IMG/VR virus record: IMGVR_UViG_3300045541_000260 | Location: 5,929-69,928 of that record | Direction: 5' to 3' (one strand) | DNA: 64,000 nt | Origin: a virus | In this document: piece by piece, positions 22,439 to 37,483 of the stretch | How the letters are laid out: each line of letters starts with the position of its first letter | Position numbering within the stretch: the stretch's first letter is position 1 | Notes under the pieces: model-generated | Databases searched by the model: none | What the model saw: the letters and a program-made list of their open reading frames with translations, nothing else | Told to the model about the DNA's origin: nothing | Position numbers and translations under genes: made by a program

Positions 22439-23049
22439 TTAAACTATTAGGTGATCTGCCCGAACAACCTACGATTGCCCTTAGCGGCGGCGTGGATAGT
22501 ATGGCTGTGGCTGATTTTATCGCAAGATCCAGAAGTGTGCGGGCAGCGTTTTTCCACCACGGAACTCCTGCTAGCCATAAAGGGTTTGAACTGGTCTCCG
22601 CATACTGTCAAAAGCGTGGATGGCCATTAGCACTAGGTCGTATTAGCAGTCCAAAAGGTAAAGTTGAGAGTCCCGAAGAGTTTTGGCGTAATCAGCGTTA
22701 TTACTGGTTGGATACATTAGGTGCAGGTGTTATCACTGCACATCATCTTGACGACTGTGTAGAAACTTACTTGTGGTCAATGATGCATGGTACAGCCAAG
22801 ACTATTCCTTATCGTCGCAATAAAGTAATTCGTCCGTTTCTTCTTACTCCTAAAAGTGAACTAGTAGATTGGGCCTCAAGAAACAATGTTCCTTGGGTAG
22901 AGGATGACAGCAATAAAGATTTAAGTTACACTAGAAACTATGTCAGACACGAACTCGTGCCTAAGGCGTTGCATGTGAATCCTGGCTTGCACAAGGTAGT
23001 GGCAAGAAAAGTGGAAGAATACAACGACAGCATTGAAATCAATATTTGA
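22435..23049 (+). CDS. tilS: tRNA(Ile)-lysidine synthetase (minimal, N-terminal domain only)
   Basis: ALSGGVDSM, R..RY, TAHHLDD..ET, IRPFL, W.ED.SN, RNYVRH. Confidence 0.9.
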   Translation: MIKLLGDLPEQPTIALSGGVDSMAVADFIARSRSVRAAFFHHGTPASHKGFELVSAYCQKRGWPLALGRISSPKGKVESPEEFWRNQRYYWLDTLGAGVITAHHLDDCVETYLWSMMHGTAKTIPYRRNKVIRPFLLTPKSELVDWASRNNVPWVEDDSNKDLSYTRNYVRHELVPKALHVNPGLHKVVARKVEEYNDSIEINI

Positions 23050-23064
23050 AGATTAAATACATTC

Positions 23065-23676
23065 ATGGATTATATTGTGGTCGACGATCTAATACCTAAG
23101 ATCGAGCAAAGAAATATCGAAATAGCAGTATTAGAAAAATCAGACATGGAGTGGCATTATTCTCCATATTCTACTTACTCTGATATAAAATTAGTCGACC
23201 AGTTTCGAAAAAATGATCCCAATATATTTGTTGATGCAGGTGGCTCATTTTCGCATGTAATTTACTTCAACAACCTCAATGGACGCGAAATAAAAAGTCC
23301 ATTCTATAATAGTTTCAAAATGATTCCAACTTTCATTGAAAAGAAGTTTAATGTTCAAGTAAATCAGCTGTTGAAAATGAATATCATGCTTACTATGCCG
23401 GATTTCAGATCTGAACATAAATATGGACTTCCGCATGTTGATTTTACTGACTTTCCTGGCGGCAAGACTATAGTTTATTATATTAACAATAGCTCGGGGG
23501 ACACAATTTTATTCAATGAAAAGTTCGAGTCTGAATTTGATACTTCCACTAAAACTATCGGATCACAGGTGTCACCTAAGCGTGGCCGTGCTGTAATGTT
23601 TGATAACCGGCAATATCATGCAGCCAGTAGATCAACAACAAATCATCGAGCAATCATAAACATAAATTTTATTTGA
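23065..23676 (+). CDS. 2OG-Fe(II) oxygenase
   Basis: PHVD, YYIN.S.GDT, YHA, R.IININF. Confidence 0.8.
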   Translation: MDYIVVDDLIPKIEQRNIEIAVLEKSDMEWHYSPYSTYSDIKLVDQFRKNDPNIFVDAGGSFSHVIYFNNLNGREIKSPFYNSFKMIPTFIEKKFNVQVNQLLKMNIMLTMPDFRSEHKYGLPHVDFTDFPGGKTIVYYINNSSGDTILFNEKFESEFDTSTKTIGSQVSPKRGRAVMFDNRQYHAASRSTTNHRAIININFI

Positions 23677-23701
23677 CACAAATAGATAAACTGTATATAA
23701 T
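23673..23701 (+). promoter_or_regulatory. sigma70-type promoter of tRNA operon
   Basis: TTGACA-17-TATAAT. Confidence 0.85.
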
Positions 23702-23713
23702 AGATACTTAGAC

Positions 23714-23747
23714 AGTTAGCAATAACTAAACGCTCTTTAAGAATTTA
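23714..23747 (+). promoter_or_regulatory. rrn-like boxB-boxA antitermination signal
   Basis: AGTTA-GCAA-TAACT GNRA hairpin followed by CGCTCTTTAAGAATTTA. Confidence 0.7.
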
Positions 23748-23834
23748 GCCCGAGTGGTGAAATAGGTAGACACAAGAGACTTAAAATCTCTCGCTCTAAC
23801 AGGCGTGCCGGTTCGAGTCCGGCCTCGGGCACCA
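23748..23834 (+). tRNA. tRNA-Leu(UAA)
   Basis: cloverleaf, long variable arm, CCA. Confidence 0.95.
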
Positions 23835-23849
23835 CATAAATATAGATTT

Positions 23850-23934
23850 GCCCTGGTGGTGGAATTGGTAGACACGCTGGTCTTAGAAGCCAGTGCTTAA
23901 TCGCGTGACGGTTCGAGTCCGTCCTGGGGCACCA
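23850..23934 (+). tRNA. tRNA-Leu(UAG)
   Basis: cloverleaf, long variable arm, CCA. Confidence 0.95.
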
Positions 23935-24078
23935 TATAAAAGTGTTATCAAGGTATCGTGTATGGACGCATACACTATGCGGGCCCAATCGGCCGGAGAC
24001 GGGTCCTGAGATAACTGCATCGGCTGTGGCACGGAACGACCGTACGCCTAAATTTGCACGATAGCACTTTTATATGGT
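23931..24078 (+). ncRNA. structured ncRNA closed by 19-bp terminal helix
   Basis: ACCATATAAAAGTGTTATC pairs with GATAGCACTTTTATATGGT; GC-rich internal hairpins. Confidence 0.7.
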
Positions 24079-24081
24079 AAT

Positions 24082-24158
24082 GCCTCTGTAGCTCAATTGG
24101 TCAGAGCAGCGGACTCATAATCCGTTGGTTAGGGGTTCGAGTCCCTTCGGAGGCACCA
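24082..24158 (+). tRNA. tRNA-CAU, probably Ile2 (lysidine substrate)
   Basis: cloverleaf, loop CTCATAA; two other CAU tRNAs fit Met and fMet, and tilS is nearby. Confidence 0.85.
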
Positions 24159-24165
24159 GAGTTTT

Positions 24166-24255
24166 GGAGCGTGGGCCGGATGGTAAGGCAGCGGATTGCT
24201 AATCCGTACAACGTTTAACGACGTTGATAGGGTTCGACTCCCTAACGCTCCGCCA
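24166..24255 (+). tRNA. tRNA-Ser(GCU)
   Basis: cloverleaf, long variable arm, GCCA. Confidence 0.95.
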
Positions 24256-24261
24256 AGAAAT

Positions 24262-24885
24262 ATGAACGATTCGGTACTAGTCATTGACGATTTTTTTGAC
24301 AAGGAAAAACAAAAATCTCTACAAAGGATTATGGAAATAGATCCGGATATCATCTGGGTTTATGTTCTTAAAACTGTAGCATATAATCATTCTACAACAA
24401 TTAATCAACTGAGAGTTCTAGATAAAAATATCTATCATCCAGGTTTTGGTGTGTTGGTACATCAAGTCTTGGAAAGAGAAAAAATTTTAAGTGCTGAGTA
24501 TTATAATGATTTTTTTGCTGATTTACCAAGCCGCATAGAATCTAAAACCGACATTTCAGTAAACAAACTTCTGAGAGTGAGATTTAATATGTCATTTCCC
24601 ATGAGACAATCTGTTGTCGGTTATGATTTACCTCATTCAGATTCTACTGAAAAAAATGTTATGACTTTCTTGTATTATGTAAACGATTCGGATGGTCCTA
24701 CTACTCTGTTTGATCAACACGATTCCGTTGACGAAAGTTGTCTTTTCGACGAACTAACCATACACAAAAAAATCGATCCAAAACAAGGAAGAGCAATTAT
24801 TTTTGATTCTAATCGTTTACATGCTGGGGCTTGGCCCAGTCAAAATAAACGATTTGTTATAAACGCAACATTTTTAGCAGATTAA
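24262..24885 (+). CDS. 2OG-Fe(II) oxygenase
   Basis: PHSD, YYVNDSDG.T, LHAG, R.VIN; start moved past the tRNA. Confidence 0.8.
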   Translation: MNDSVLVIDDFFDKEKQKSLQRIMEIDPDIIWVYVLKTVAYNHSTTINQLRVLDKNIYHPGFGVLVHQVLEREKILSAEYYNDFFADLPSRIESKTDISVNKLLRVRFNMSFPMRQSVVGYDLPHSDSTEKNVMTFLYYVNDSDGPTTLFDQHDSVDESCLFDELTIHKKIDPKQGRAIIFDSNRLHAGAWPSQNKRFVINATFLAD

Positions 24886-24887
24886 AT

Positions 24888-24962
24888 CTGGCCATAGTAT
24901 AATGGATAATACAGCGGCCTTCTAAGCCGTCAATCCAGGTTCGATTCCTGGTGGCCGGACCA
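24888..24962 (+). tRNA. tRNA-Arg(UCU)
   Basis: cloverleaf, CCA. Confidence 0.95.
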
Positions 24963-24991
24963 GAAATTTTTTAGTGTTTGTTCAAAATTTA

Positions 24992-25020
24992 TTGACAACA
25001 AGACTAAATAATCTTACAAT
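24992..25020 (+). promoter_or_regulatory. sigma70-type promoter
   Basis: TTGACA-17-TACAAT just upstream of tRNA-Thr. Confidence 0.7.
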
Positions 25021-25028
25021 TTAATTCT

Positions 25029-25104
25029 GCTGGATTAGCTCAGTTGGTAGAGCACCCGCCTTGTAAGCGGAAGGTCGTCAGTTCGAACCCGACATCCAGC
25101 ACCA
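25029..25104 (+). tRNA. tRNA-Thr(UGU)
   Basis: cloverleaf, CCA. Confidence 0.95.
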
Positions 25105-25107
25105 AAC

Positions 25108-25308
25108 ACTGGGTTTACACTTTTACCTTAGAAAAAGTGGGCGATTGTCAGAGCCATACTGACAGGGCGAGACTGTTCTTAGCCCCAAGGCCCGCTAACA
25201 TGGGCGACTTGAGAAACACAGTCGGGCAGAGGTGACGCTGACCTAGAATTAAATGTCAACGGACAGGGTAACAACTCAGTTCGGGGCCGAGTGGTGCCGG
25301 TAGCCGAA
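25108..25308 (+). ncRNA. multi-hairpin structured ncRNA of unknown family
   Basis: closing ACTGGGTT/AACTCAGT; stems CACTTTT/AAAAGTG, TGTCAG/CTGACA, GACTGT/ACAGTC, GCCC/GGGC. Confidence 0.55.
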
Positions 25309-25394
25309 CATTTTATTGAAGCATATTCTAACTAATAAAGATTGCGATCGGGGTTGGTTAACAATCAGCACCTTGGGTGTGTTTCAATAAAATG
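25309..25394 (+). ncRNA. long-stem ncRNA, GAAGCACATT/AGTGTGTTTC family
   Basis: CATTTTATTGAAGCATATTC pairs with GGGTGTGTTTCAATAAAATG. Confidence 0.65.
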
Positions 25395-25421
25395 AATTTT
25401 CCAGCAATAGTCCAGAGACTG

Positions 25422-25450
25422 TTGACACAAAAGATAAATAACACTATAAT
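25422..25450 (+). promoter_or_regulatory. sigma70-type promoter of attenuated tRNA operon
   Basis: TTGACACAAAAGATAAATAACACTATAAT. Confidence 0.85.
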
Positions 25451-25457
25451 AGGACAT

Positions 25458-25556
25458 ATGATGAACACATTTGTTAATTATTGCGAACAGTATGAGCAAG
25501 ATCATAAATGGTCACGCTCTCCTATTGGCAGTAATTTCCAGGAGGGTTCGGCATAA
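25458..25556 (+). CDS. putative attenuator leader peptide MMNTFVNYCEQYEQDHKWSRSPIGSNFQEGSA
   Basis: 32-codon ORF directly after the -10 box; 19 different amino acids; last codons form the 5' arm of an antiterminator. Confidence 0.75.
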   Translation: MMNTFVNYCEQYEQDHKWSRSPIGSNFQEGSA

Positions 25557-25594
25557 TCCTATAGTCATATTATAAGATTATCTGAACCCTGGAA
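25536..25594 (+). promoter_or_regulatory. antiterminator hairpin
   Basis: TTCCA.GGGTTCGG.ATAATC.TATAG pairs with TTATA.GATTAT.CTGAACCC.TGGAA, sequestering the terminator 5' arm. Confidence 0.75.
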
Positions 25595-25620
25595 TTAAAA
25601 ACTCCAGGGTTTTTGTTTTT
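25585..25620 (+). terminator. intrinsic terminator (attenuator)
   Basis: AACCCTGGA-loop-TCCAGGGTT then TTTGTTTTT. Confidence 0.85.
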
Positions 25621-25628
25621 ATAAGGAT

Positions 25629-25793
25629 ATGAAGCAAGTAAAATTTAAAGACATAAAACATACTGATTGGTCAAAGCATAGTTCGCTAACAGCTGAACAG
25701 CGTAATCAATTGATTCGTGAAAAGTTGGAACGAGCTAGACTTTGGCATGCAGTATTAAACACGCGAAAGAATGGTCACCACGCCATTTGTTAG
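25629..25793 (+). CDS. small basic protein (54 aa), first gene after the attenuator
   Basis: SD AAGGA; MKQVKFKDIKHTDWSKH... Confidence 0.55.
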   Translation: MKQVKFKDIKHTDWSKHSSLTAEQRNQLIREKLERARLWHAVLNTRKNGHHAIC

Positions 25794-25799
25794 TATCGC

Positions 25800-25912
25800 A
25801 AAGTGTGTATAGGGAACGCGACCCTGCTGGGCACTTAAAACATCTGGCTATTAATGAGGGCGTCCTAGGGGATGAGAAGTTTCGGGCGATAACCGAAATG
25901 GTAAAAACCTAG
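25800..25912 (+). ncRNA. putative structured RNA
   Basis: stems AAGTGT/GCACTT, AGGG/CCCT, CTAGG/CCTAG, TTTCGG/CCGAAA in a non-coding GC-richer island. Confidence 0.45.
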
Positions 25913-25913
25913 C

Positions 25914-25990
25914 GTAGTAAAGCACATTAGACGAATGGATACAATCTGTAGGCATACAGAAGAAACAGAGCGGCTAGTGTGCTTTACTAC
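25914..25990 (+). ncRNA. long-stem ncRNA, GAAGCACATT/AGTGTGTTTC family
   Basis: GTAGTAAAGCACATTAG pairs with CTAGTGTGCTTTACTAC. Confidence 0.65.
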
Positions 25991-26024
25991 ACGCATTTGA
26001 TGTATTGCATTAATAAATAATTTA

Positions 26025-26753
26025 ATGAGTATGATACTAAGAAAATTATGTGCGTTAAACAAGGATCAAATTAATTTTTATGGCACGGAGCTGGGCATTG
26101 ATAGTAGACAATATCAAATCACTTGTTTCGGCGAAGCTTTAAAACATTTTGATAATTATCCTTATAGCATTGAATATAAATGCAATAATCGCGGGTTTCG
26201 TGGCCCAGATTGGCCTACTGACGTTCAAGAACTCAATGATGCTATATGGTGTATAGGCGATAGCTTTACTTTTGGCGTCGGGGTTCCTTACGAACATACT
26301 TGGCCTTATATACTGCGAGAAAAAACGGGTCGCAGAACTATTAATACTTCGGCTAATGGAGTAGGAAATACATGGCTCGTTGAAATTGCCAATGAATTGT
26401 TTACCGAAATAGAACCAAAAATTATGGTACTTCATTGGTCTTATACTCACAGACGAAAAAGACATCTATGGGATTATGCACATTATCAAAATACAACCAT
26501 AGAAGAAGATGCCGATTTACTAATTTCTTGTATTAGAGAAATTGAAAATAATCGGCGAAATGTTAAAATTATACATAGTTTCATTCCAAAATTTCATGGA
26601 GATTGCCAGGCTCTTTATCAAAGGATCCGCAACGAATTTCCTGACATTAACTCTATTCCCTATATTGAGCCAATTGATTACGGCAGAGACAGTCATCATT
26701 ATGATAAACTGACTGCTGAAAAATTTGTTGACAATATCATTGAATTACTTTAA
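26025..26753 (+). CDS. SGNH/GDSL-like hydrolase
   Basis: N..GFRG, GDSFTFG.G, GRDSHH. Confidence 0.65.
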   Translation: MSMILRKLCALNKDQINFYGTELGIDSRQYQITCFGEALKHFDNYPYSIEYKCNNRGFRGPDWPTDVQELNDAIWCIGDSFTFGVGVPYEHTWPYILREKTGRRTINTSANGVGNTWLVEIANELFTEIEPKIMVLHWSYTHRRKRHLWDYAHYQNTTIEEDADLLISCIREIENNRRNVKIIHSFIPKFHGDCQALYQRIRNEFPDINSIPYIEPIDYGRDSHHYDKLTAEKFVDNIIELL

Positions 26754-26781
26754 AATACATCAAGTGCGTTAGAAATTATTT

Positions 26782-26857
26782 GCTCGGTTCGTCTATCGGT
26801 TTAGGACGCTAGCCTTTCACGCTGGAAAGACGGGTTCGATTCCCGTACCGAGTACCA
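26782..26857 (+). tRNA. tRNA-Glu(UUC)
   Basis: cloverleaf, CCA. Confidence 0.95.
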
Positions 26858-26867
26858 AATAAATGAA

Positions 26868-27365
26868 ATGAGATTTGTAAAAAAAATTCCAAACTTTTTT
26901 AGCATTGATGAATGCCAGACAGCAATCTCATGTCATGATGATTCATATTATCAAGATCATGGTAATCTTATCGGCGGTTCTCTATCAAGTTTTAACTTTT
27001 TTAAAGATAAGGATCGCAATGAGTTTCATGAACTGTTAGATGAGAAATTAAATTTTAGCAATAGGATACTTGAACTTATCAAGTTCCCGGGAGCTATTTC
27101 GCATGTTTGGCTTAACATACAGCCTAAAAATTCTGTTTTAACCCCGCATATCCATTCACACAACAATTGTATAATGTCGGGTAGTTTGTATTTAAAAGTT
27201 GATAGCAGTAGTAGTGCAATTAAATTTTCTCATGTCGAGAAATACATTGTTAAACCAGAATTAGGAATGCTGTTGGTATTTCCAAGTTGGTTAGTACATG
27301 GGGGTTATGGAGACAATTTATCAGATGAAAGAATAGTATTAAGTTTTAATGTTGTAAAAAATTGA
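26868..27365 (+). CDS. 2OG-Fe(II) oxygenase (TIGR02466-like)
   Basis: W.N, H.H, SGSLYL, FPSWLVH, RIVLSFN. Confidence 0.8.
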   Translation: MRFVKKIPNFFSIDECQTAISCHDDSYYQDHGNLIGGSLSSFNFFKDKDRNEFHELLDEKLNFSNRILELIKFPGAISHVWLNIQPKNSVLTPHIHSHNNCIMSGSLYLKVDSSSSAIKFSHVEKYIVKPELGMLLVFPSWLVHGGYGDNLSDERIVLSFNVVKN

Positions 27366-27449
27366 TACCATATTGAAGCACATTATCAAAGTGGGTTCGA
27401 TTCCCCGCCATTGATCCGGTTGCTGGTGCTAGTGTGTTTCAATATGGTA
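27366..27449 (+). ncRNA. long-stem ncRNA with T-arm-like hairpin
   Basis: TACCATATTGAAGCACATTA/TAGTGTGTTTCAATATGGTA; internal GTGGGTTCGATTCCCCGC. Confidence 0.7.
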
Positions 27450-27494
27450 AGAGAGTAATTAACTTTTACTGTAGTCGGAAGTCATGACTCCGAT

Positions 27495-27630
27495 GACCCG
27501 TGGTAGTTTAATGGCAAAATGAGAGAGACACAGGTTCGAGCCCTGTCTGGATCCCTAACTAAGGAACCGGTAGCATAGTTGGACAATGCGCGGACAGATG
27601 GCAGTTTCGAAACCTGCCCCACAATGGGTC
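27495..27630 (+). ncRNA. tandem anticodon-less tRNA-elbow mimic
   Basis: two D-arm + T-arm units enclosed by GACCCG/TGGGTC. Confidence 0.6.
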
Positions 27631-27732
27631 GCTATATTGAAGCACATTAGATCGACTAAGGAAGGTCAGGGAGAAGTGAAATTCTCGTAGGGAGTAGGAG
27701 TCGAGTCCTACAATAGTGTGTTTCAATATGGT
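27631..27732 (+). ncRNA. long-stem ncRNA, GAAGCACATT/AGTGTGTTTC family
   Basis: GCTATATTGAAGCACATTA/TAGTGTGTTTCAATATGGT; internal GTAGGA/TCCTAC and GAGAA/TTCTC hairpins. Confidence 0.7.
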
Positions 27733-27735
27733 TAA

Positions 27736-27955
27736 ACCATAAGAATGACAATTTGATGTCAGCAAGAGAAAGTCACTGTTGTAAGTAGCTGGCCAGCCAA
27801 AGCGACAGTAAAGCAGTGAGGGGCGCAATACCCTAGCAAAAATAGAAGCACTGGACAAGTATCTCAAGTGACTTACCGACTCCCGTCCGGACTAGTGCAA
27901 TCGGGTGAATGGTGCCAATAAGGTGGTGGCACATTCAAGTTGTCATCCTTATGGT
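27736..27955 (+). ncRNA. 220-nt structured ncRNA closed by 21-bp helix
   Basis: ACCATAAGAATGACAATTTGA/TCAAGTTGTCATCCTTATGGT; internal AAGTCAC/GTGACTT. Confidence 0.65.
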
Positions 27956-27963
27956 AAAGTTTT

Positions 27964-28048
27964 GGAGAACGAGAAGCATTGGTGACTTCAGGAGACTGTA
28001 AATCTTCCGCCTCCGGCATACGGGGTTCGAATCCCTGGTTCTCCACCA
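27964..28048 (+). tRNA. tRNA-Tyr(GUA)
   Basis: cloverleaf, variable arm, CCA. Confidence 0.92.
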
Positions 28049-28054
28049 AGTTTA

Positions 28055-28129
28055 GGTCTCAAGGTGTTCATGGACGCACACATGCCTGTCACGCATGAGG
28101 AGGGGGATCGTTACCCCCTGGGACCGCCA
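28055..28129 (+). tRNA. tRNA-Asp(GUC), atypical T-loop
   Basis: stem CATGC/GCATG, loop CTGTCAC, T-loop ATCGTTA, GCCA. Confidence 0.88.
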
Positions 28130-28133
28130 ATTT

Positions 28134-28169
28134 GGAAGCGTAACTCAGTTGGTTAGAGTATCGGACTTT
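28134..28169 (+). pseudogene. 5' half of a tRNA (probably Lys-UUU) truncated at the anticodon
   Basis: GGAAGCG-TA-ACTC AGTTGGTTA GAGT-A-TCGGA-CTTT then AT-rich sequence; no complementary 3' half seen. Confidence 0.75.
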
Positions 28170-28201
28170 ATTTGATAAATAAGTATAAAGGAGTTACAAT
28201 T

Positions 28202-28831
28202 ATGCTTACTTGTCAATTTTGTAATAAAGAGTGTAAAAATAAAAATAGTCATATAAATCACGAGAGAACTTGCCCTTCTAATATAAACAGAGTTTATAAA
28301 AATGGAATGTTAGGTAAAAAAGGATCTAACCATTGGCTCAAAGCAAGGAGTGAAGGAACAGAATATGTTTTATCAGAAGAAACTAGACAAAAAATGTCTG
28401 TCGCAAGTTCTAGTAGGACACATTCTGATAAAACAAAAAAAATATTGTCAGAGATAAGAAAGAAATTTTTAGAGGAAAATCCAGATAAGATTCCGTATCT
28501 ATTAAATCATTCTTCAAAAATTTCTTATCCTGAGCAATATTTTTTAGAGTGTTTTTCGAACATAACCAAAAATAAAGAATTTCAATATCCAATACACAGA
28601 TTTTTAGTTGACTTTGCTAATCCTAAAGAAAAAGTATATCTTGAAATTGACGGCGAACAACATTATGTTGATAAAAGAATTGTTGCTCACGATACAATAC
28701 GCAGTAAAAAATTAACTGAATTGGGCTGGACGGGAATTAGAATTCGTTGGGCTCATTTTCAAAAATTAACAGATGATGAAAAAAAGCAAAAGATAAATGA
28801 AATACGGTCCATGATGAAATGGTTATCATAG
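28202..28831 (+). mobile_element. free-standing homing-type endonuclease (Zn finger + NUMOD3-like + Vsr/DUF559-like nuclease)
   Basis: CQFC..H...C; LSEETRQKMS, HSDKTKKILS; VDF..LEIDGEQHY..D..R...L..LGW..IRI.W; SD AAGGAG. Confidence 0.8.
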
Positions 28832-28879
28832 TTGACTTTTAATCAATCTTTCCCGGTTCGAGTCCGGGTGGACCGACCA
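28805..28879 (+). tRNA. tRNA-Lys(UUU) overlapping the endonuclease 3' end
   Basis: CGGTCCA/TGGACCG acceptor, GTTGA-CTTTTAA-TCAAT, CCCGG-TTCGAGT-CCGGG, ACCA. Confidence 0.9.
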
Positions 28880-28905
28880 ATTATAAACTAAGTGTAAATT
28901 GTAAC

Positions 28906-29268
28906 ATGAAATTCACTATCGACGAACAATATATCTGCGATGTTCAAGTTAGGCAAGAATACGATTTCATCAAAGATCGTAACAATCCCACGCCCGAAGA
29001 ACTTATCAAGGTCCTGCAGGGCCACGATAAAGCCGTTACTACATATAACAAAGACCACGATGAATTCACTAAGTTGCGTAACCAACTTGAAGCACTAGGT
29101 TACATTAAGTGCGAGCGCAGCTGGTGGAATGGTGATGTAGTGTTGAAACCATTTGTGCTTAACGATATTAAATTTCGAAAGAATGATAGATTTCTTTGTG
29201 CCGCGGCAATGAAGACTGCCTTAACGGTTGCAAAACAAACAGGAAGAAAGTATAATCCTAGATACTAA
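28906..29268 (+). CDS. hypothetical protein
   Basis: DH.EF..LR..L...GYI..ERSWWNGD.V. Confidence 0.65.
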   Translation: MKFTIDEQYICDVQVRQEYDFIKDRNNPTPEELIKVLQGHDKAVTTYNKDHDEFTKLRNQLEALGYIKCERSWWNGDVVLKPFVLNDIKFRKNDRFLCAAAMKTALTVAKQTGRKYNPRY

Positions 29269-29283
29269 CTTAAAGGAACTATA

Positions 29284-29466
29284 ATGTTGAAACCCGGACC
29301 CAATTTTAAGATGACTAAGGCCAACAAGTATACTGTGGCAAAAATTCTCGACCCGCATCGTCGTGGAGAAATCAAGCGCGGCCTTATCGATGCTCAATTG
29401 GCCAGCGAAATTAGAGTCAAGTCTAACAAAGAAGATCGCAAGTCAGGCCCACCAGCTGCTCAGTAA
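29284..29466 (+). CDS. small basic hypothetical protein
   Basis: SD AAGGA. Confidence 0.55.
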   Translation: MLKPGPNFKMTKANKYTVAKILDPHRRGEIKRGLIDAQLASEIRVKSNKEDRKSGPPAAQ

Positions 29467-29472
29467 TTTGAT

Positions 29473-29556
29473 GTATCGGTGGCCGAGTGGTTGAAGGCAA
29501 CGGATTGCAAATCCGTCTCGAAAGACTCGTCGGTTCGAATCCGACCCGATACTCCA
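29473..29556 (+). tRNA. tRNA-Cys(GCA) with enlarged variable region
   Basis: ACGGA-TTGCAAA-TCCGT; U73; 12-nt variable region. Confidence 0.9.
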
Positions 29557-29575
29557 GAATTCACATTATAAATAT

Positions 29576-29650
29576 GGTGATGTAGCACAGCGGTAGTGCA
29601 ACGCCTTCATACGGCGTGGGTCGTAAGTTCGAATCTTACCATCACCACCA
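29576..29650 (+). tRNA. tRNA-Met(CAU), elongator-type
   Basis: cloverleaf, loop TTCATAC. Confidence 0.88.
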
Positions 29651-29659
29651 AAGTGTTTA

Positions 29660-29736
29660 GCCTCAATAGCTCAGTTGGTTAGAGCACCGTCTTGATAAGG
29701 CGGGGGTCCATAGTTCAAATCTATGTTGAGGCACCA
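29660..29736 (+). tRNA. tRNA-Ile(GAU)
   Basis: cloverleaf, CCA. Confidence 0.95.
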
Positions 29737-29745
29737 AAAATCTAT

Positions 29746-29821
29746 TCCCCGATAGCTCAGTCGGTAGAGCAGCAGACTGTTAATCTGTTGGTCCGTGGTT
29801 CGAACCCACGTCGGGGAGCCA
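29746..29821 (+). tRNA. tRNA-Asn(GUU)
   Basis: cloverleaf, GCCA. Confidence 0.95.
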
Positions 29822-29840
29822 AATATAAAAGGAGTTTACT

Positions 29841-30197
29841 GTGAGTCATTTTGGTTATCATTTAATGTTAGATTGTAGCGGTTGCGAAAGAATTGACAGC
29901 CGAGAAAATATCTACAACTTTACAAAAGATCTAATTAAACGAATTGATATGACGGCTCATGGTGAACCCATTATTGAATATCTTTTACCAGGCGACCCCA
30001 AGCAGGGTTTCAGCTTAATGCAGTTGATTACTACCAGTAACATTGCTGGACATTTTATGGAACTTGATGGCACCGCCTACTTTGATGTGTTCAGTTGCAA
30101 GACTTTTGATGCTAAGGTAGTTGAGCAAGTGGTGCAAGAATATTTTAATCCTAAGCGTATGCGTGTTAACTTTATAACAAGACATGCAGATGTTTAA
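29841..30197 (+). CDS. speD: S-adenosylmethionine decarboxylase proenzyme
   Basis: GYHLMLD, QLITTSNIAGHF (pyruvoyl Ser site), DVFSCK. Confidence 0.8.
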   Translation: MSHFGYHLMLDCSGCERIDSRENIYNFTKDLIKRIDMTAHGEPIIEYLLPGDPKQGFSLMQLITTSNIAGHFMELDGTAYFDVFSCKTFDAKVVEQVVQEYFNPKRMRVNFITRHADV

Positions 30198-30759
30198 AAA
30201 ATTAAAGGACGCTATGTCTAAAAAACCTGCTTACTATGTAAGACAGGAAATTAGTGTTCCTATATATAAATTTAATATACAAAAAGAAGTATCAAACGAT
30301 AGCATTTTAGAAAGAGCGTCGGCACTTAGGAAAGATAATTCAGAGTCTAACCGTAAGAAGTTAATTATCAATAGCTATCAAACGGATTATATGACAGACA
30401 AAGAATCATTTAGTGATTTGGCTCAAGTCATCGAATCAAAAGCACAACTTATTACAGGTAAAAAATATAAAATTTTACATTATTGGTTTGTGTTTTACAA
30501 TAAAGGTGGCTCGCAAAAGTTACATAATCATGTGCTACCTAATACGCTCAATGAGCTTCCACTATCGGCAGTCTATTACCCTACAGTGGGGAATAATACT
30601 GCACCGATCATTTTCAAAACATTAGAAAAAAATTCCAATGATCTGTTAATTCCAGTGGAGAAAGGCACTTTGCTAATTTTTCATAGCGAGTTGTTACATT
30701 ATGTTCCTGAATCAATATCAGATGATTTGCGTGTAGTGTTTTCTTGCAATTTGCAATAA
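30190..30759 (+). CDS. 2OG-Fe(II) oxygenase (TIGR02466-like)
   Basis: HNH, SAVYY, F.S.LLHYV, R. Confidence 0.75.
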   Translation: MFKKLKDAMSKKPAYYVRQEISVPIYKFNIQKEVSNDSILERASALRKDNSESNRKKLIINSYQTDYMTDKESFSDLAQVIESKAQLITGKKYKILHYWFVFYNKGGSQKLHNHVLPNTLNELPLSAVYYPTVGNNTAPIIFKTLEKNSNDLLIPVEKGTLLIFHSELLHYVPESISDDLRVVFSCNLQ

Positions 30760-30783
30760 AGAAATTATCTACTAAACTTCATG

Positions 30784-31506
30784 TTATATTTGTGATAAAA
30801 TATGTCGAGCAAAGAAAAAATTATGATTAGTGCCAAGGTGTGACAAGTCCCGTGCATAATCGCCTTTATCGGCCCTTTCTAGCCAGTAATCGTTTGAATA
30901 GATAAATTTAATATTTTTGTCAGCACATAGCGATTTTATGGCATAATAATTTTTTTCATAATTCATTTTAGTGTTAGTGATGTCCGATACATAATCTTTT
31001 AAATAAGGTTCAGAATTTACATTTACATCTTTTAATTGAATACTTTTAAGTCTCCTGTCTGTTTTATTCAATTGAACAGCTAACTCTAATCTGCCCGGTG
31101 GCGGCTCGTTATAAACTACCATTTTTGGTTTTATAAGTTCTAAAAAGCCGTAACATAATCGAAAGCATAGATCGGGTGATCCGGCACCTTGTCCTAGGTT
31201 AACACATTTTAAATTTAGATTTTTGGCAACAATACTAGCCCATGTTTCTTCGACGGGTAATCCAATACCAATAGTGTTGCTACAACCTAAAAACATAATT
31301 GAAGGCTCTTCGGTAAATTCTTCGCAGCGAAAGCCCAATGAATTAAACTTGTAGGATATTTTTTTGTCGATCCACCCGTACTTTTTTAAGTCAGCAAATC
31401 GGTGTTCTAGATGTTCGATAAATCTATCATGAGTATCCATCGGTAGCCAATCTAGTTCCTGATTGGCAAACTGTTTATATATAGAAGAAAAATTAATTTG
31501 ATTCAT
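30784..31506 (-). CDS. SGNH-like protein
   Basis: FNSLGFR, LGCSNT.GIG, ARDLSHLG. Confidence 0.6.
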   Translation of the reverse strand: MNQINFSSIYKQFANQELDWLPMDTHDRFIEHLEHRFADLKKYGWIDKKISYKFNSLGFRCEEFTEEPSIMFLGCSNTIGIGLPVEETWASIVAKNLNLKCVNLGQGAGSPDLCFRLCYGFLELIKPKMVVYNEPPPGRLELAVQLNKTDRRLKSIQLKDVNVNSEPYLKDYVSDITNTKMNYEKNYYAIKSLCADKNIKFIYSNDYWLERADKGDYARDLSHLGTNHNFFFARHILSQI

Positions 31507-31518
31507 GAAAATATTTAT

Positions 31519-31594
31519 GGTGAGGATAGTGTAACGGTTCGCACGGCTGTCTGTGAAACAGCAAGACAGGGTTCAACTCCCGTCCATCACCCCA
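31519..31594 (+). tRNA. tRNA-His(GUG)
   Basis: GCTGT-CTGTGAA-ACAGC; G-1:C73; irregular acceptor and T stems. Confidence 0.82.
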
Positions 31595-31595
31595 A

Positions 31596-31671
31596 GCCGA
31601 TGTAGCTCAGCTGGTAGAGCAGCGGATTGAAAATCCGTGTGTCACTGGTTCGATCCCAGTCTTCGGCACCA
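31596..31671 (+). tRNA. tRNA-Phe(GAA)
   Basis: cloverleaf, CCA. Confidence 0.95.
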
Positions 31672-31678
31672 ATTCAGT

Positions 31679-31754
31679 TGGGGGTTAGCTCAATTGGTAG
31701 AGCAGCGGGTTTTGATCCCGTTGGTTGGAGGTTCGAGTCCTCTACCCCTTGCCA
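31679..31754 (+). tRNA. tRNA-Gln(UUG)
   Basis: cloverleaf, GCCA. Confidence 0.92.
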
Positions 31755-31756
31755 GT

Positions 31757-32029
31757 TTACTTGTATCCTAAACGATTTAGAATATTGATTGCTCTTGTTC
31801 TTAATCGTTCAGTGAATTCGCTTTCTGTAAGCACACCTTTAGATAGGTTGCATTTACGGCAAGTTACTTGTAGATTACTATAAACAGTTAGCCCGCCTTT
31901 CGATTCGGGAATAACATGATCTAAATGCACTTCAGCATTAGTTAAATCTTCATCGCAATACACACAGCGAAGTCCATCTCGTTCAACGACTTGTCTGCGA
32001 AGATTTAATGGTATTCGATCCTTTTTCAC
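31757..32029 (-). CDS. HNH endonuclease
   Basis: RDG.RCVYC, DHVIP.SKGG, NL...CRKCN..K; GTG start 5 nt after TAAATA. Confidence 0.85.
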   Translation of the reverse strand: MKKDRIPLNLRRQVVERDGLRCVYCDEDLTNAEVHLDHVIPESKGGLTVYSNLQVTCRKCNLSKGVLTESEFTERLRTRAINILNRLGYK

Positions 32030-32056
32030 AACGATATTTATTTTTTGGTAATTAAT

Positions 32057-32130
32057 ATCTCCCTGGTGTAATGGCAGCATGTGGGTCTCCAAAACCCTTG
32101 GTCGCGGTTCGAGTCCGTGGGGAGGTGCCA
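32057..32130 (+). tRNA. tRNA-Trp(CCA)
   Basis: loop CTCCAAA, GCCA. Confidence 0.92.
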
Positions 32131-32146
32131 ATTCATAAATACAGGC

Positions 32147-33271
32147 ATGGATAAAAAGTATTTTGTTTTTGAACCATGGCGAGCTGGTTTAGGTAATGTT
32201 ATTATGAGTTATGAGTGTGCATTAGCATTAGCTCATATTACAAATAGAACATTAATAATGCCACCTACTGTTCATTTAGGTCATATTTCTAACGGCATTA
32301 AAGAACAAAATCCTAGATATTGGGATTTGTTTGACGAAGCAATAACGAAACAAGAATTTGACATTGTTGAATATTTCGATCATGACGAATTCAAAGACAA
32401 ATACAAAGAACTACAAACAGGAATAAGTTGGATCGAACACGTAGATAAATTATTTCCTGACAGTTATTCTTGGACTACCACGGACAACATTTATCAAGCA
32501 ACAGGGTCAAATATTTGCTTTGTCAACGACATTGATGGTTTGAAAGACTCCAATGACTTCGAAACATTTTCAGCAGGTCGTCGAATCATTGATGTTAATA
32601 GACCAGAAAAGTATTTGATTTTTAAACATAATCTTTTTCAGAATTTCTGGTCAATGATTTATCCAGGGCCAGCATCAGAACGTAACAGATTAAAGAAGAA
32701 AATAAATTCATCAGTTAAGTACAATAAAAAATACTACGACTTGTTTGAAAAATCGCCAATGCGTAATATAAGCAACTACAATGCTGTTCATATTCGTCGC
32801 AATGATTTTTTCGTACAGTTTTCTTATGCATTGACAACTGTAGATCAAAGCGACAAGTTAGTTGATCAATTGTTACGAGTGTTTAACCCCGGTGTTCCTT
32901 TGTATATTACCACAGACGAAAAAAACTTAGAATTCTTTGATAGTGTTAAAAAAGTATACAAAGAAGTGTATATTAGCACTGCTATGCACAAGGATTTAGA
33001 TGATCTTGAAATAGCAATATTAGATCAAATTATTTGTAGTCGTGCTGATATATTTTATGGCACTCAAAATTCTACGTATAGTCGTAGAATCAACATCATG
33101 CGCGGCCTTGATAATAGATCAGCGCATGACAACATGGGAATTAATAATTTAGACAAGCCCGGTATAGAATGTGGATATTTTCCGTGGTTAGAACGCCACG
33201 ATAAAGAATGGAGTTGGAATGCCAGCGCATACTTACAATGGACACTGGAAAATGAGCCATACGATTGCTAA
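32147..33271 (+). CDS. O-fucosyltransferase-like glycosyltransferase
   Basis: GLGN, NRTLIMPP, AVHIRRNDF, LYITTDE, DQIICS.A..FYGT..STYS. Confidence 0.75.
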   Translation: MDKKYFVFEPWRAGLGNVIMSYECALALAHITNRTLIMPPTVHLGHISNGIKEQNPRYWDLFDEAITKQEFDIVEYFDHDEFKDKYKELQTGISWIEHVDKLFPDSYSWTTTDNIYQATGSNICFVNDIDGLKDSNDFETFSAGRRIIDVNRPEKYLIFKHNLFQNFWSMIYPGPASERNRLKKKINSSVKYNKKYYDLFEKSPMRNISNYNAVHIRRNDFFVQFSYALTTVDQSDKLVDQLLRVFNPGVPLYITTDEKNLEFFDSVKKVYKEVYISTAMHKDLDDLEIAILDQIICSRADIFYGTQNSTYSRRINIMRGLDNRSAHDNMGINNLDKPGIECGYFPWLERHDKEWSWNASAYLQWTLENEPYDC

Positions 33272-33280
33272 ATAAATTAT

Positions 33281-33844
33281 ATGAATAAAAACTTTCGAAT
33301 AATCGATGATGCACTGCCCAATCCTTTCGAAGTAAAAGAATTTTTAAAGTCACTGACACATTTTACAACAGAAACTTATAAAATTGATGGCTTGGCCTAT
33401 GGCGACAATTCTCAAAGACCAGATGGTTATTGGAGAGGATTCAGATCGGTTAATGTTTATAACAAAGATAGAGTGAATACAGAATTAACGTTGAAGTATC
33501 TCTTAAAGAAAGTTTTCCATATGGACTGTTCTTTTAACAGCGCAGAAGCATACTCACATTTTACCACGGACAGAATGCATAAAGAAATTCCTCCGGCTAG
33601 TCGTTGGCATCCAGATAATGTTGAGTGTGCAGGAGTTCTTTACTTAAATGAAAACCCACCGAAACATTCAGGAACATTTATTAATGTTAATGGCGAAATA
33701 ATTGAAGTTGAAAATAAATTTAACCGATTGGTAGTTTACCATGGCGGATTGCACCACGCTCCTGGAGTATTATTTGGAGAAGATGCCAGCAATGCCAGAC
33801 ATACATATTCTATATTCATTAAAGATATAAAGTTTAACAAATAA
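33281..33844 (+). CDS. 2OG-Fe(II) oxygenase-like protein
   Basis: HPD, AGVLYL, GT, FNRLVVY...HH. Confidence 0.7.
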   Translation: MNKNFRIIDDALPNPFEVKEFLKSLTHFTTETYKIDGLAYGDNSQRPDGYWRGFRSVNVYNKDRVNTELTLKYLLKKVFHMDCSFNSAEAYSHFTTDRMHKEIPPASRWHPDNVECAGVLYLNENPPKHSGTFINVNGEIIEVENKFNRLVVYHGGLHHAPGVLFGEDASNARHTYSIFIKDIKFNK

Positions 33845-33848
33845 AAAT

Positions 33849-33924
33849 GCGGGTGTAGCTCAGTTGGTAGAGCACTTCCTTGCCAAGGAAGATGTCGACA
33901 GTTCGAACCTGTTCACCCGCTCCA
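33849..33924 (+). tRNA. tRNA-Gly(GCC)
   Basis: cloverleaf, TCCA. Confidence 0.95.
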
Positions 33925-33932
33925 ACAATTCC

Positions 33933-34024
33933 GGAAGTGTGGCAGAGCCCGGTTTATTGCAACAGTCTTGAAAACTGTCGAAGGTTAAAATCTTCCGTGA
34001 GTTCGAATCTCACCACTTCCGCCA
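33933..34024 (+). tRNA. tRNA-Ser(UGA)
   Basis: cloverleaf, long variable arm. Confidence 0.95.
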
Positions 34025-34036
34025 TGTCATTAAATT

Positions 34037-34666
34037 ATGAACACAGTTAATATTGGACCTTGCTCAATTGATATCCACGAACGTGCCGGTATAGTCATGA
34101 GTGGAGGCGCTGACAGTAGCGTATTACTTTTCATCATGATGAAATATTCCCAAAGCCCTGTTAATGTTTATACATTAGCTAGTAAGGAAAAATTCTTTTC
34201 GTCGGCACAGATTAGTGCTAACGTAATTAAAAAATGTATGGAATTAACAGGCAAGAGCATTAATCAACATAATGTAATTTATGCTGATAAACAAAATAAC
34301 GAATTAGTGTTCAAGCATCCATGGAGAGACTTAAAGTCTAGAGATATATCAATTGTTTATACTGGTTTGACTAAATTGCCGCCCATTGAAGTATATTCGA
34401 AATTTAAGAACCCTACAGAAGACAGTGTGTTTGAGGAGCGAAATCCCAGCGTAACTTATAATGAATATTCGGGAAATAAAAAAATCTATATGCCCTTTTA
34501 TAATCTGGATAAAAAACAAATACATGAAATTTATCGAAATTTTGACCTAGAACACAGCCTATTCCCACTGACAAGAAGTTGCGAAAGTTTAGTACAAAAT
34601 ACAGGTCATTGCGGTACATGTTGGTGGTGTGAAGAGCGCCAATGGGCTTTTGGTAGATTAGAGTAA
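34037..34666 (+). CDS. QueC-like PP-loop ATPase
   Basis: MSGGADSS; TRSC...HCGTCWWCEER. Confidence 0.7.
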   Translation: MNTVNIGPCSIDIHERAGIVMSGGADSSVLLFIMMKYSQSPVNVYTLASKEKFFSSAQISANVIKKCMELTGKSINQHNVIYADKQNNELVFKHPWRDLKSRDISIVYTGLTKLPPIEVYSKFKNPTEDSVFEERNPSVTYNEYSGNKKIYMPFYNLDKKQIHEIYRNFDLEHSLFPLTRSCESLVQNTGHCGTCWWCEERQWAFGRLE

Positions 34667-34669
34667 ACT

Positions 34670-34746
34670 CGGCCCTTAACTCAGTTGGATAGAGTGCCTG
34701 TCTTCGAAACAGGAAGTCGTGGGTTCGAATCCTGCAGGGCCGGCCA
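34670..34746 (+). tRNA. tRNA-Arg(UCG)
   Basis: CCTGT-CTTCGAA-ACAGG, GCCA. Confidence 0.92.
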
Positions 34747-34767
34747 ATACTAAATAATAGAGTAAGC

Positions 34768-35547
34768 ATGGAAATTAAAATTATGACCACTCTATCAGAC
34801 GCAACTTATCTACAACCGCACAATAAAAATTTATGGGAAATATTTTCCATGGATGACTATTTTACGGACAATAATAAAGACAATTTTCTTGTATTAGATT
34901 TTGGCTGTAATCAATGTAATTTTCTTACTTCTGCTTACAGAAACACCAAACAGCCCAGACGTTTTGGCCCAAAGAATTACATAGGTTTAGATTCAAATCT
35001 TAATTCAGTTAACACTGCCAAGGAAAAGTATCCTTTAACAGCTAATAAGATACTTCACTATGACAAATATCATAGAAGTTATAATCCCACTGGCATTCCT
35101 GGGCTTTTAGCCAGCAATTACATAAACACTAAAGTTGATCTGGTCGTCGCTTATAGCGTTTTTACTCATTCAAGTATTAATGAAACTCGTGAGATTCTTG
35201 ACGATTTAAAAACTCTACTAAAGCCCGGTGGCTCAATTGTGTTTAGTTTATGGACATCCGAGTCTTTGGAGGGATTCTATAATTACAGTTCGGCAAATCG
35301 TAATATCGAAAAAACACCAGAACGATATCAAGAACTAGTTGCTAAACCTTTCAACCAGGTTATGTATTGGATAGACCATAATTATTCTTTAGTTGATTCC
35401 AATGAAGTAGAAACTGGCCCGGTGAATTCTTTTAGCACATTCTACAAGGATGTTAATGCGATATTAAATATATTTCCCGACTTTGAATACTTGGGCAAAC
35501 CCAGTCTGCCCAAGCAATATCAGCAGTTGTTCAAGCTGTCAGCTTGA
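34768..35547 (+). CDS. class I SAM-dependent methyltransferase
   Basis: VLDFGC, YIGLD, YSVFTH, LLKPGG. Confidence 0.8.
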   Translation: MEIKIMTTLSDATYLQPHNKNLWEIFSMDDYFTDNNKDNFLVLDFGCNQCNFLTSAYRNTKQPRRFGPKNYIGLDSNLNSVNTAKEKYPLTANKILHYDKYHRSYNPTGIPGLLASNYINTKVDLVVAYSVFTHSSINETREILDDLKTLLKPGGSIVFSLWTSESLEGFYNYSSANRNIEKTPERYQELVAKPFNQVMYWIDHNYSLVDSNEVETGPVNSFSTFYKDVNAILNIFPDFEYLGKPSLPKQYQQLFKLSA

Positions 35548-36267
35548 TAAAATATCATTGACTTCATTTATGAAACTGTCATAATCCCGTTGACAAGTTT
35601 CATAATTAAAATGCCTGGCGAAAGCTTCTTCGAATTTTGGCTTCAGGCTGTGATAATTATTCACTAAGATAGAATAATCTCTATCAATGATTTTTGTTCG
35701 AGCTTTTTCGGATATGTCTTCTGTTAAATCCATTTCAGAATTATACAGTTGAAAAGGCAAGCCGTTGTCAATGACATATTTTTTAATTCTCATATAACCT
35801 GCAATGTCTCCGGTAATAAGTGTTGTGGCCTGATGAGTAATGTCAAATTTTTGATTTCGAAATTCGGCGAACCTGTCGGCGGGGTTTGATTTTAATTGAT
35901 TAAAAATTCTACTGTAATAAGCTACAACATAACTACACAGTTGATGAAAGTAATCATGACGTTCAATCAAATATAAAAAATCATAGTTTTCCAGTCTCAT
36001 GCGTTCAGGCCTGATGTTTTCATCACCCACAAACTTTCCGGGAAGGTCTGAATTTAAACTAAAGTTTTGTCCTAAAATTTTAACTAAAAAGTGATCATGA
36101 TCTCGAAACAGTTCTTCGGTGATCTGATCTCTGTCAGTTTTTTTCAATGCTGTAATATTTCGGCTATAAAATTCCCAAAGATATTCTAGCTCCGGATGCG
36201 TTTCGGATAGAAAAGTAGTTAATGCGCTACTTCTAGTTCGAGCAGCTGATATAACTGCAATTTTCAT
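35539..36267 (-). CDS. sulfotransferase-like/P-loop-like protein
   Basis: ISAARTRSS resembles a 5'-PAPS-binding motif; ER.D...Q..S. Confidence 0.45.
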   Translation of the reverse strand: MKIAVISAARTRSSALTTFLSETHPELEYLWEFYSRNITALKKTDRDQITEELFRDHDHFLVKILGQNFSLNSDLPGKFVGDENIRPERMRLENYDFLYLIERHDYFHQLCSYVVAYYSRIFNQLKSNPADRFAEFRNQKFDITHQATTLITGDIAGYMRIKKYVIDNGLPFQLYNSEMDLTEDISEKARTKIIDRDYSILVNNYHSLKPKFEEAFARHFNYETCQRDYDSFINEVNDILSS

Positions 36268-36381
36268 TGATTCCCCTTAAAATTTTATTGACAAGCATTG
36301 CACATTGACAATTTTCATCGATTGATTTTTGTCTATAAATTTAATATAATAGTCTATTTATGAATAACGAAAGGAGAAATC

Positions 36382-36561
36382 ATGGACCTTAAATTCAAAC
36401 GTTTTGAACCAATTACTCCTGATGCTAAAATCAAAATTAATGAACTGCTAAAACGTGGCGGTGCTATAGTTGCAGAAAAGCGCGAGTTCATTGATATTGA
36501 ACGACTTCAAAGCATTGCCAGAATCGACCAGAAAGGTCGTGTAGAATGGCGTCAAAAATAA
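36382..36561 (+). CDS. small hypothetical protein (59 aa)
   Basis: strong SD AAGGAG. Confidence 0.6.
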   Translation: MDLKFKRFEPITPDAKIKINELLKRGGAIVAEKREFIDIERLQSIARIDQKGRVEWRQK

Positions 36562-36562
36562 T

Positions 36563-36637
36563 ACCACTGTAGTTCAACGGATAGAATACTTGGCTACGAA
36601 CTAAGAGACGGAGGTTCGATTCCTTCCAGTGGTGCCA
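36563..36637 (+). tRNA. tRNA-Arg(ACG)
   Basis: cloverleaf, loop CTACGAA, GCCA. Confidence 0.92.
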
Positions 36638-36639
36638 CT

Positions 36640-37324: not shown

Positions 37325-37483
37325 AGCGGTCTCCTTATTTTTACTTACAAGCCCTTATGTTACCAAGTTTACTACTAGAGCATAAATCATACTAAAGTAG
37401 TACAGTATTAACACTGATTGGTATTGGTTTTGCAGACTAAATTAGTAGTTGATATTATCAAAAGCATTTGCTATAATAATCGT

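Follow-up and report, generated by a model that had tools for sequence, protein, structure and literature searches.

The window, that is, the whole 64 kb stretch of DNA analysed here, belongs to a 69,928-base IMG/VR virus record (IMGVR_UViG_3300045541_000260) with an estimated completeness of 21%. Its relatives come from uncultured freshwater phages, and we read the window as DNA of a lake phage. It carries 27 tRNA genes, all on the plus strand, between positions 23748 and 49259. Inside this tRNA region lies a short module, the subject of this work, which consists of a sigma-70 promoter, a leader open reading frame (ORF) and an intrinsic terminator, the 5' arm of which can also pair with the end of the leader (Table 1). 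Behind the terminator follow the gene of a small basic protein (ORF2), a conserved structured non-coding RNA (ncRNA), the gene of a GDSL-like protein and further tRNA genes. All results are computational, and the readings rest on sequence, folding and comparison. The initial annotation, made from the letters of the window, had described a perfect sigma-70 promoter, and our scan gave it the full score; only two sites of this score occur among the 65 promoter-like sites in 23000–38000. The translation of the leader is identical to the one described there: its first 24 codons cover 18 amino-acid types and the whole leader 19, Leu alone being missing. The synonymous pairs AAC/AAT, GAA/GAG and CAG/CAA are also found in it. 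The terminator was missed by the general terminator scan because its loop is longer than the 3–8 nt that the scan allows.

Table 1. Features of the leader module and of the surrounding tRNA region (positions in the window unless a relative is named).
Feature	Position	Strand	Basis or score	Remarks
Sigma-70 consensus promoter	25422–25450	+	12/12	TTGACA-17-TATAAT
Leader mini-ORF	25458–25556	+	19/20 amino-acid types	32 codons and TAA (25554–25556); starts ATGATG
Mid-ORF hairpin	25500–25513	+	local fold	single Trp codon in 3' strand
Segment A, antiterminator 5' strand	25536–25551	+	pairs with 25582–25594	last leader codons
Inner hairpin	25553–25581	+	fold	leader stop codon (25554–25556) in 5' strand
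Segment B, shared strand	25582–25594	+	both folds	pairs with A (antiterminator) or C (terminator)
Intrinsic terminator	25584–25620	+	fold	stem 25584–25593/25603–25612, 9-nt loop, T-run 25610–25620
ORF2	25629–25793	+	ORF scan	basic protein of 54 amino acids; own Shine-Dalgarno; 8 nt past T-run
Conserved structured ncRNA	25795–25926 (to about 25995)	+	alignment of 5 loci, all relatives	
The same ncRNA in relatives	L002 7099–7260; L011 1825–2010; L082 3365–3560; L084 2665–2860			
GDSL-like protein	26025–26753		weak Pfam match, below cut-off	after the ncRNA
Promoter, 11/12	26728–26756		promoter scan	just before tRNA-Glu (26782)
Three 2OG-Fe(II) oxygenase-family genes	23065–23676; 24196–24885; 26868–27365		Pfam E 5e-6; 4e-7; 6e-14	among tRNA genes
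DUF559/endonuclease-like gene	28172–28831			overlaps start of tRNA-Lys (28805)

Relatives of the module were collected with three anchors. The GDSL-like protein gave 65 protein relatives and 383 metagenome matches, which were reduced to 80 loci. When the element was compared with these loci by BLAST, it was found in L011 and L002, and a promoter was found at the cut end of L018. Queries with the leader peptide and ORF2 gave L082, L083 and L084 from IMG/VR. A 22-nt motif of the ncRNA is exact in 13 IMG/VR contigs and gave 13 more IMG/VR loci, L085–L097. The module is thus present in 18 fetched loci besides the window (L002, L011, L082, L083, L084 and L085–L097), one of which, L083, is known only from its tRNA list and a protein match. 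With the window included, there are 16 distinct module sequences and 14 distinct peptides. IMG/VR gave no relatives via the GDSL-like protein, the exact 28-nt terminator pattern or a two-sequence leader alignment, and the GenBank phage collection gave none by DNA (tRNA matches only) or by protein. Every one of the 18 module loci contains tRNA genes. The module stands at the head of an array of 22–23 tRNA genes in L088 and L091, and tRNA-Thr(UGU) immediately precedes it in the window, L011, L082, L084 and L086. The arrangement of promoter, mini-ORF, stop codon in a hairpin and terminator, for which conservation had been expected, is kept in the relatives.

The RNA of the module (25457–25625) folds better than its shuffled versions (z −4.86, 0/200). 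Two alternative structures were obtained from it. When the 3' arm of the terminator is left out (25530–25598), the RNA forms a 25-bp extended hairpin of −24.9 kcal/mol (z −4.6, 0/200 shuffles as good), which includes the end of the leader and its stop codon and sequesters the 5' arm of the terminator. When the upstream strand is omitted (25566–25625), a 10-bp terminator stem is formed, followed by TTTTTGTTTTT, with −18.8 kcal/mol. This is the pair of competing hairpins that had been proposed for the window. The duplex of segments A and B has −13.5 kcal/mol in the window (P=0.0065 against 2000 shuffles), and the antiterminator hairpins of L087 and L011 are equivalent, with −23.9 and −22.9 kcal/mol. 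In an alignment of 14 sequences the terminator has compensatory changes at 4/9 pairs and is 88.9% paired; 0/500 shuffles reach its covariation score. RNAalifold on whole modules recovered the terminator stem only. The antiterminator strands fall in different alignment columns depending on the lineage, and therefore the A:B pairing was tested in each sequence separately. Its energies range from −9 to −17 kcal/mol across modules, segment A matching the terminator arm of its own lineage. Compared with 2000 shuffles, P was at most 0.01 in 8/14 modules and 0.03–0.07 in 3. Covariation had been expected for both hairpins: the terminator does covary, and the antiterminator is seen as per-lineage complementarity, which holds at P<=0.07 in 11/14 modules and is non-significant in three. 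The geometry is also kept. Segment A ends 6–17 nt before the end of the stop codon in 14/14 modules (6 nt in the window), and the distance from the stop codon to the T-run is 52–62 nt in all modules. In the module folds that were inspected by eye, the 5' strand of the inner hairpin contains the stop codon or has it at its edge.

All related modules contain homologous ORFs of 32–48 codons. The frame is open in 16/16 distinct modules, with indels and length differences in frame, and nucleotide divergence between modules is up to about 38%, for example between the window and L086. The ratio of non-synonymous to synonymous changes (pN/pS) is 0.38–0.52 across 6 informative within-lineage pairs. For the window and L086, both with 32 codons, it is 0.52, with an estimate of 11 synonymous and 26 non-synonymous changes (about 37 substitutions). 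Between lineages the peptides are about 10–35% identical and have many in-frame indels. Judging from these patterns, the leader frame looks translated. In a three-sequence DNA alignment the leader had looked like the frameshifted remnant of a longer gene; this was ruled out by the protein alignment and by L086, whose same 32 codons keep the frame. Neither the leader nor ORF2 matched a Pfam or PHROG family, and a tiny helix-turn-helix protein, suggested by the conserved core of the peptide, was discarded without support from these databases. No variants of the leader were seen in two DNA runs whose contigs were mapped.

The leader also contains a local hairpin in the middle of the ORF, and UGG lies within its 3' strand in 13/14 modules. 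As a guess, this could be a pause hairpin for RNA polymerase. It does not compete with segment A, and therefore it cannot enforce termination. In the L011-type leaders, codons of conserved N-terminal residues (1466–1480 in L011) and of conserved residues near the C-terminus (1536–1550) form a long helix around the mid-ORF hairpin. Thus, part of the peptide conservation may be a constraint at the RNA level.

The most unusual property of the leader is its amino-acid content. No single codon forms a run in it; 18–20 amino-acid types occur about once or twice each, in contrast to the clustered regulatory codons of known leader-peptide attenuators. In the window, codons 2–25, which lie upstream of segment A, hold 18 types, and the equivalent zone holds 16–20 types across 14 modules. 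Each of the 14 distinct peptides from the module loci has 18–20 types. Together with 9 peptides from the protein search, there are 23 distinct peptides, with 20 types in 9, 19 in 9, 18 in 4 and 17 in 1. In a shuffle that preserves the frame, the 36-codon leaders gave values near 0.01, and the L011 group was non-significant (0.3–0.6). Seven lineages combined, with residues shared with another lineage fixed, gave a Fisher p=1e-4, and p=1e-3 when the least diverse member of each lineage was used.

To extend this comparison, a profile search was run over 1.84 billion representatives, which gave 89 matches at E<=0.001, mutually <50% identical. The count of complete sets was restricted to the 67/89 representatives of at most 53 amino acids (mean 47). 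It turned out that 45 of them contain all 20 types, 19 contain 19, 2 contain 18, and 1 contains 17. The profile was made from diverse leaders, so its consensus positions are diverse by construction, and for this reason the simulations left the consensus residues unchanged and filled the other positions from the background. The expected number of complete sets was then 7.5–10 (standard deviation 2.7–2.8, maximum 18–19 in 2000 simulations). Four types that the consensus does not provide still occur in most of the 67 representatives: Cys in 91%, Leu in 88%, Asn in 99% and Val in 94%. Cys is spread over 28 different alignment columns. Among other ATG-ORFs of the same loci, leaders included, complete sets make up 0.4% at 32–40 amino acids and 1.9% at 41–53. 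On this comparative evidence, amino-acid completeness appears to be under selection, which would act on the presence of each residue and not on its position. The expectation that relatives conserve the diversity of the leader rather than its sequence is therefore borne out. A further idea of the initial annotation, that Leu is missing from the leader because both Leu tRNA genes lie upstream of the module, did not hold. The two Leu tRNA genes are indeed upstream, but so are those of Thr(UGU) and Ser(GCU), and the leader contains ACA and AGT; this explanation is also at odds with the presence of Leu in 88% of the 67 representatives.

The position of the start codon points to a leaderless mRNA. 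Sigma-70 transcription generally starts 6–8 nt after the −10 hexamer, which would put AUG at the 5' end of the transcript. ATGATG begins 7 nt past the −10 hexamer in the window, and from this spacing the transcript start is predicted at the ATG or within 1–2 nt of it. A transcript from this promoter would thus contain no Shine-Dalgarno sequence, and the mRNA would be leaderless. The gap between −10 and ATG is 6–7 nt in 8/14 modules with distinct peptides, and 7/8 of these start with ATGATG. Variants with a 5' untranslated region (UTR) carry a Shine-Dalgarno sequence; the UTR has 17 nt in L002 and 39–49 nt in L011, L082 and L084. Leaders of this kind have a single ATG instead of the tandem. On transcripts coming in from upstream, the AGGA/AAGG that separates the −10 hexamer from the tandem start could act as a Shine-Dalgarno sequence for the second ATG. 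In L085 (5997–6055, minus strand), TAAATA stands 7 nt before the ATG and there is no sigma-70 promoter, as far as the contig end shows; this recalls the TAAATA-N5/6-start late promoters of an earlier annotation.

We consider it probable that the element is a ribosome-mediated transcription attenuator with a near-complete 20-amino-acid (pangram) leader, placed within a phage tRNA array. The direction of the switch and its physiological signal are inferred from the two folds and the leader. Transcription would begin at the AUG or 1–2 nt before it and give a leaderless mRNA. If the 3' end of the leader is free of ribosomes, segment A and the inner hairpin would pair with B, and the more stable antiterminator would form first. 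The 5' arm of the terminator would then be sequestered, and RNA polymerase would continue into ORF2, the ncRNA and beyond. A ribosome at the stop codon would cover segment A with its footprint and melt the inner hairpin, leaving B free for segment C, its partner in the terminator, and transcription would terminate. Since almost every amino acid is represented in the leader, slow decoding of nearly any codon class ahead of segment A would hold the ribosome back, and read-through would be favoured.

Leader-peptide attenuators are well known in enterobacteria, where trpL, hisL, leuL and pheL are accompanied by the multivalent thrL and ilvL. Like trp/his-type leaders, the module has a mini-ORF close to the promoter and, behind it, an intrinsic terminator with a second possible pairing partner for its 5' arm. 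As in them, the position of the ribosome would choose the hairpin, and a ribosome at the stop codon would favour termination. In contrast to them, the module samples 18–20 amino-acid types without a single-codon run, sits in a phage, and lies ahead of genes for a small protein, an ncRNA and tRNAs, where the enterobacterial leaders precede biosynthetic enzymes. It is built of the three segments A, B and C with the inner hairpin, without the 1:2 element of the trp type, and in several lineages, including the window, a leaderless mRNA is expected. In an Rfam scan of 23000–50000, tRNAs alone passed the threshold. The sub-threshold scores (bits against gathering cut-off) were 22.5 vs 49 for His_leader RF00514, 22.6 vs 50 for STnc180 and 20.8 vs 42 for PsrR1. 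This indicates that the module is not a member of the His_leader family, nor does it belong to any other Rfam family.

What the switch could control follows from the genes behind it. ORF2 would be the first gene expressed by read-through. Its homologues stand behind the terminator in L011, L082, L084, L086 and L097, and its conservation there extends to six lineages. Relatives of the L002, L087 and L089 types lack ORF2, as does one variant in run X6, where 25619 is joined to 25853 with 40 other letters between. The ncRNA behind ORF2 shares 79% identity with its L002 counterpart across 117 nt, and its long closing helix is visible in the alignment; it matched no Rfam family. The GDSL-like family is large in freshwater phages, and its genes adjoin tRNA arrays in the loci scanned for tRNAs (L002, L011, L018). 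The downstream tRNA genes follow in the order E, Y, D, K, C, M, I, N, H, F, Q, W, exactly as first described. In L084, no promoter of at least 10/12 lies between the terminator and the next 13 tRNA genes, and therefore these 13 tRNAs depend on read-through. Two contigs of an RNA library bear on transcription, and DNA carry-over is possible for both. One, of 246 nt, bridges the terminator (25544–25735, 11 differences), which is a weak hint of read-through in nature. The other covers the promoter (25395–25460) and is a weak hint of transcription entering from upstream.

Several observations weigh against this interpretation or narrow it. The claim that the switch gates about 21 tRNAs is too strong for the window, where an 11/12 promoter precedes the first downstream tRNA gene and several 10/12 sites follow that promoter. 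In the L087–L091/L096 and L089/L090 lineages an 11/12 promoter lies directly after the terminator. Thus, in the window and in some relatives the switch would only modulate the downstream tRNAs and not gate them. The module has no trp-type 1:2 element, which in classical attenuators makes transcription terminate when the leader is not translated; its default in the absence of translation would therefore be read-through, unlike in those systems. The A:B complementarity of three of the 14 modules does not exceed that of shuffles (P 0.16–0.20). The leader of the window taken alone is mildly unusual, with P=0.012–0.015 by composition and P=0.042 in dinucleotide shuffles with the reading frame held open; in L086, its nearest relative, there are 18 types (P=0.17). 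In the larger subfamily the peptide core is strongly conserved, so that the peptide itself could function. The mapped runs are contigs that cannot show RNA ends, the RNA library may hold DNA, and uncovered stretches are uninformative. As a whole, the attenuator proposed in the initial annotation keeps its conserved arrangement, the covariation of its terminator and the conserved diversity of its leader, and it loses the gating of about 21 tRNAs and the link to the Leu tRNAs.

The conserved core of the peptide leads to the question of whether the module is an ordinary small gene. It would then encode a functional micro-protein of 32–48 amino acids, acting for example on translation or on tRNAs. 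The terminator would merely end its transcript, and the pairing between the ORF end and the terminator arm would only shape mRNA stability or termination efficiency. Conservation of the core in a large subfamily, pN/pS below 1 and the presence of the gene's own strong promoter and terminator all fit this explanation, as does the second promoter after the terminator, which makes the cassette look self-contained in some lineages. However, an identity of about 10–35% between lineages with many in-frame indels, and the lack of Pfam or PHROG family matches, speak against it. A micro-protein also does not explain why 45/67 representatives have complete amino-acid sets with Cys in 28 columns, why the stop-to-T-run distance is constant at 52–62 nt, or why A:B complementarity is lineage-specific. 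Nor does it account for ORF2 and the 13 tRNAs of L084, which are without another strong promoter. We regard such a gene as unlikely, though worth keeping in mind.

The same cassettes with a promoter behind the terminator would suit a dual-function attenuator, in which the terminated leader RNA of about 160 nt or the released peptide acts in trans and downstream control is secondary. The short transcript is strongly structured (z −4.9), and there is a precedent in the rhizobial trpL RNA and peptide, as far as the available text of the reports goes (PMC6614838, bioRxiv 10.1101/606483). However, nothing in our data requires a function in trans, no complementarity search for targets having been made, and we give this variant a low probability. 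Our first reading was an untranslated structured small RNA, in which the open frame is incidental to an ncRNA running from promoter to terminator. The window has no Shine-Dalgarno sequence after the promoter, the fold is strong, and the region is rich in other ncRNAs. This reading was dropped on the in-frame ORFs and Shine-Dalgarno sites conserved in the relatives. The frame stays open in all 16 distinct modules despite the nucleotide divergence, with indels in frame and pN/pS below 1; the relatives with a UTR have a canonical Shine-Dalgarno sequence, and the spacing of 6–7 nt between −10 and ATG is conserved. It seems very improbable now. A ribosome-mediated attenuator remains our preferred reading of the module.

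The tRNA region around the module contains further features. The 84 nt at 25311–25394, just upstream of the promoter, are absent from a DNA contig of run X6 and from an RNA-library contig of run X15, where 25310 joins 25395 with two other letters between. This segment behaves as a small inserted element, and it is among the helix-closed ncRNA-like elements of the earlier annotation. Enzyme genes that lie between the tRNA genes are given in Table 1.

A literature search of the accessible full texts found no published account of leader-peptide control of tRNA arrays. The following comparisons hold as far as the accessible text of the cited papers goes. The bmrCD leader of Bacillus subtilis is a ribosome-mediated attenuator that senses general inhibition of translation (PMC4191407). 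Like our module, it uses a short upstream ORF and a terminator/antiterminator pair to tie read-through to general ribosome stalling. The bmrCD type responds to ribosome-targeting antibiotics and controls bacterial resistance genes, whereas the module belongs to a phage tRNA array and has a leader whose composition looks selected for completeness; the two have no sequence relation. The nearest published idea is the trn operon of Anabaena sp. PCC 7120, a supplementary array of 26 tRNA genes that is normally silent and is induced under translational stress (PMC8421152, PMC10272220). It is cellular, however, and controlled at the promoter level, by the repressor TrcR bound to direct repeats (PMC8421152, PMC10272220); the strings 'leader', 'attenuat' and 'terminator' each occur 0 times in the text of PMC8421152 that was available. 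Phage tRNAs are known to counter tRNA-targeting defences, which gives a phage a reason to sense tRNA loss (PMC10264068, PMC11464382). In their accessible parts, these two papers concern the tRNAs, and no regulatory leader was seen in them.

In our model, the likeliest use of the switch would be as a feedback gauge, with transcription of the tRNA region rising under poor decoding and falling when translation proceeds smoothly. More tentatively, and at somewhat less than even chance in our estimate, a clade of large freshwater phages would use one pangram leader to gauge how fast essentially every amino acid or tRNA class is decoded. It would set the transcription of its tRNA array accordingly, as a homeostat. 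The switch would also supply replacement tRNAs when any tRNA is depleted by host anticodon nucleases or by other defences that target translation. It may thereby act against tRNA-cleaving defences. Attenuators usually sense one or a few amino acids for their own biosynthesis; if the reading is true, the same logic has been reused differently. With a leader apparently selected to contain all amino acids and placed ahead of tRNA genes, the virus could sense its overall decoding capacity. The comparative signal is itself unusual, since selection applies to the presence of each amino acid and not to its position. If true, this would answer how phage tRNA arrays are regulated. The module would then offer a compact sensor, of natural origin, for tRNAs or aminoacyl-tRNAs in short supply, and it would bear on the arms race between phages and tRNA-cleaving defences.

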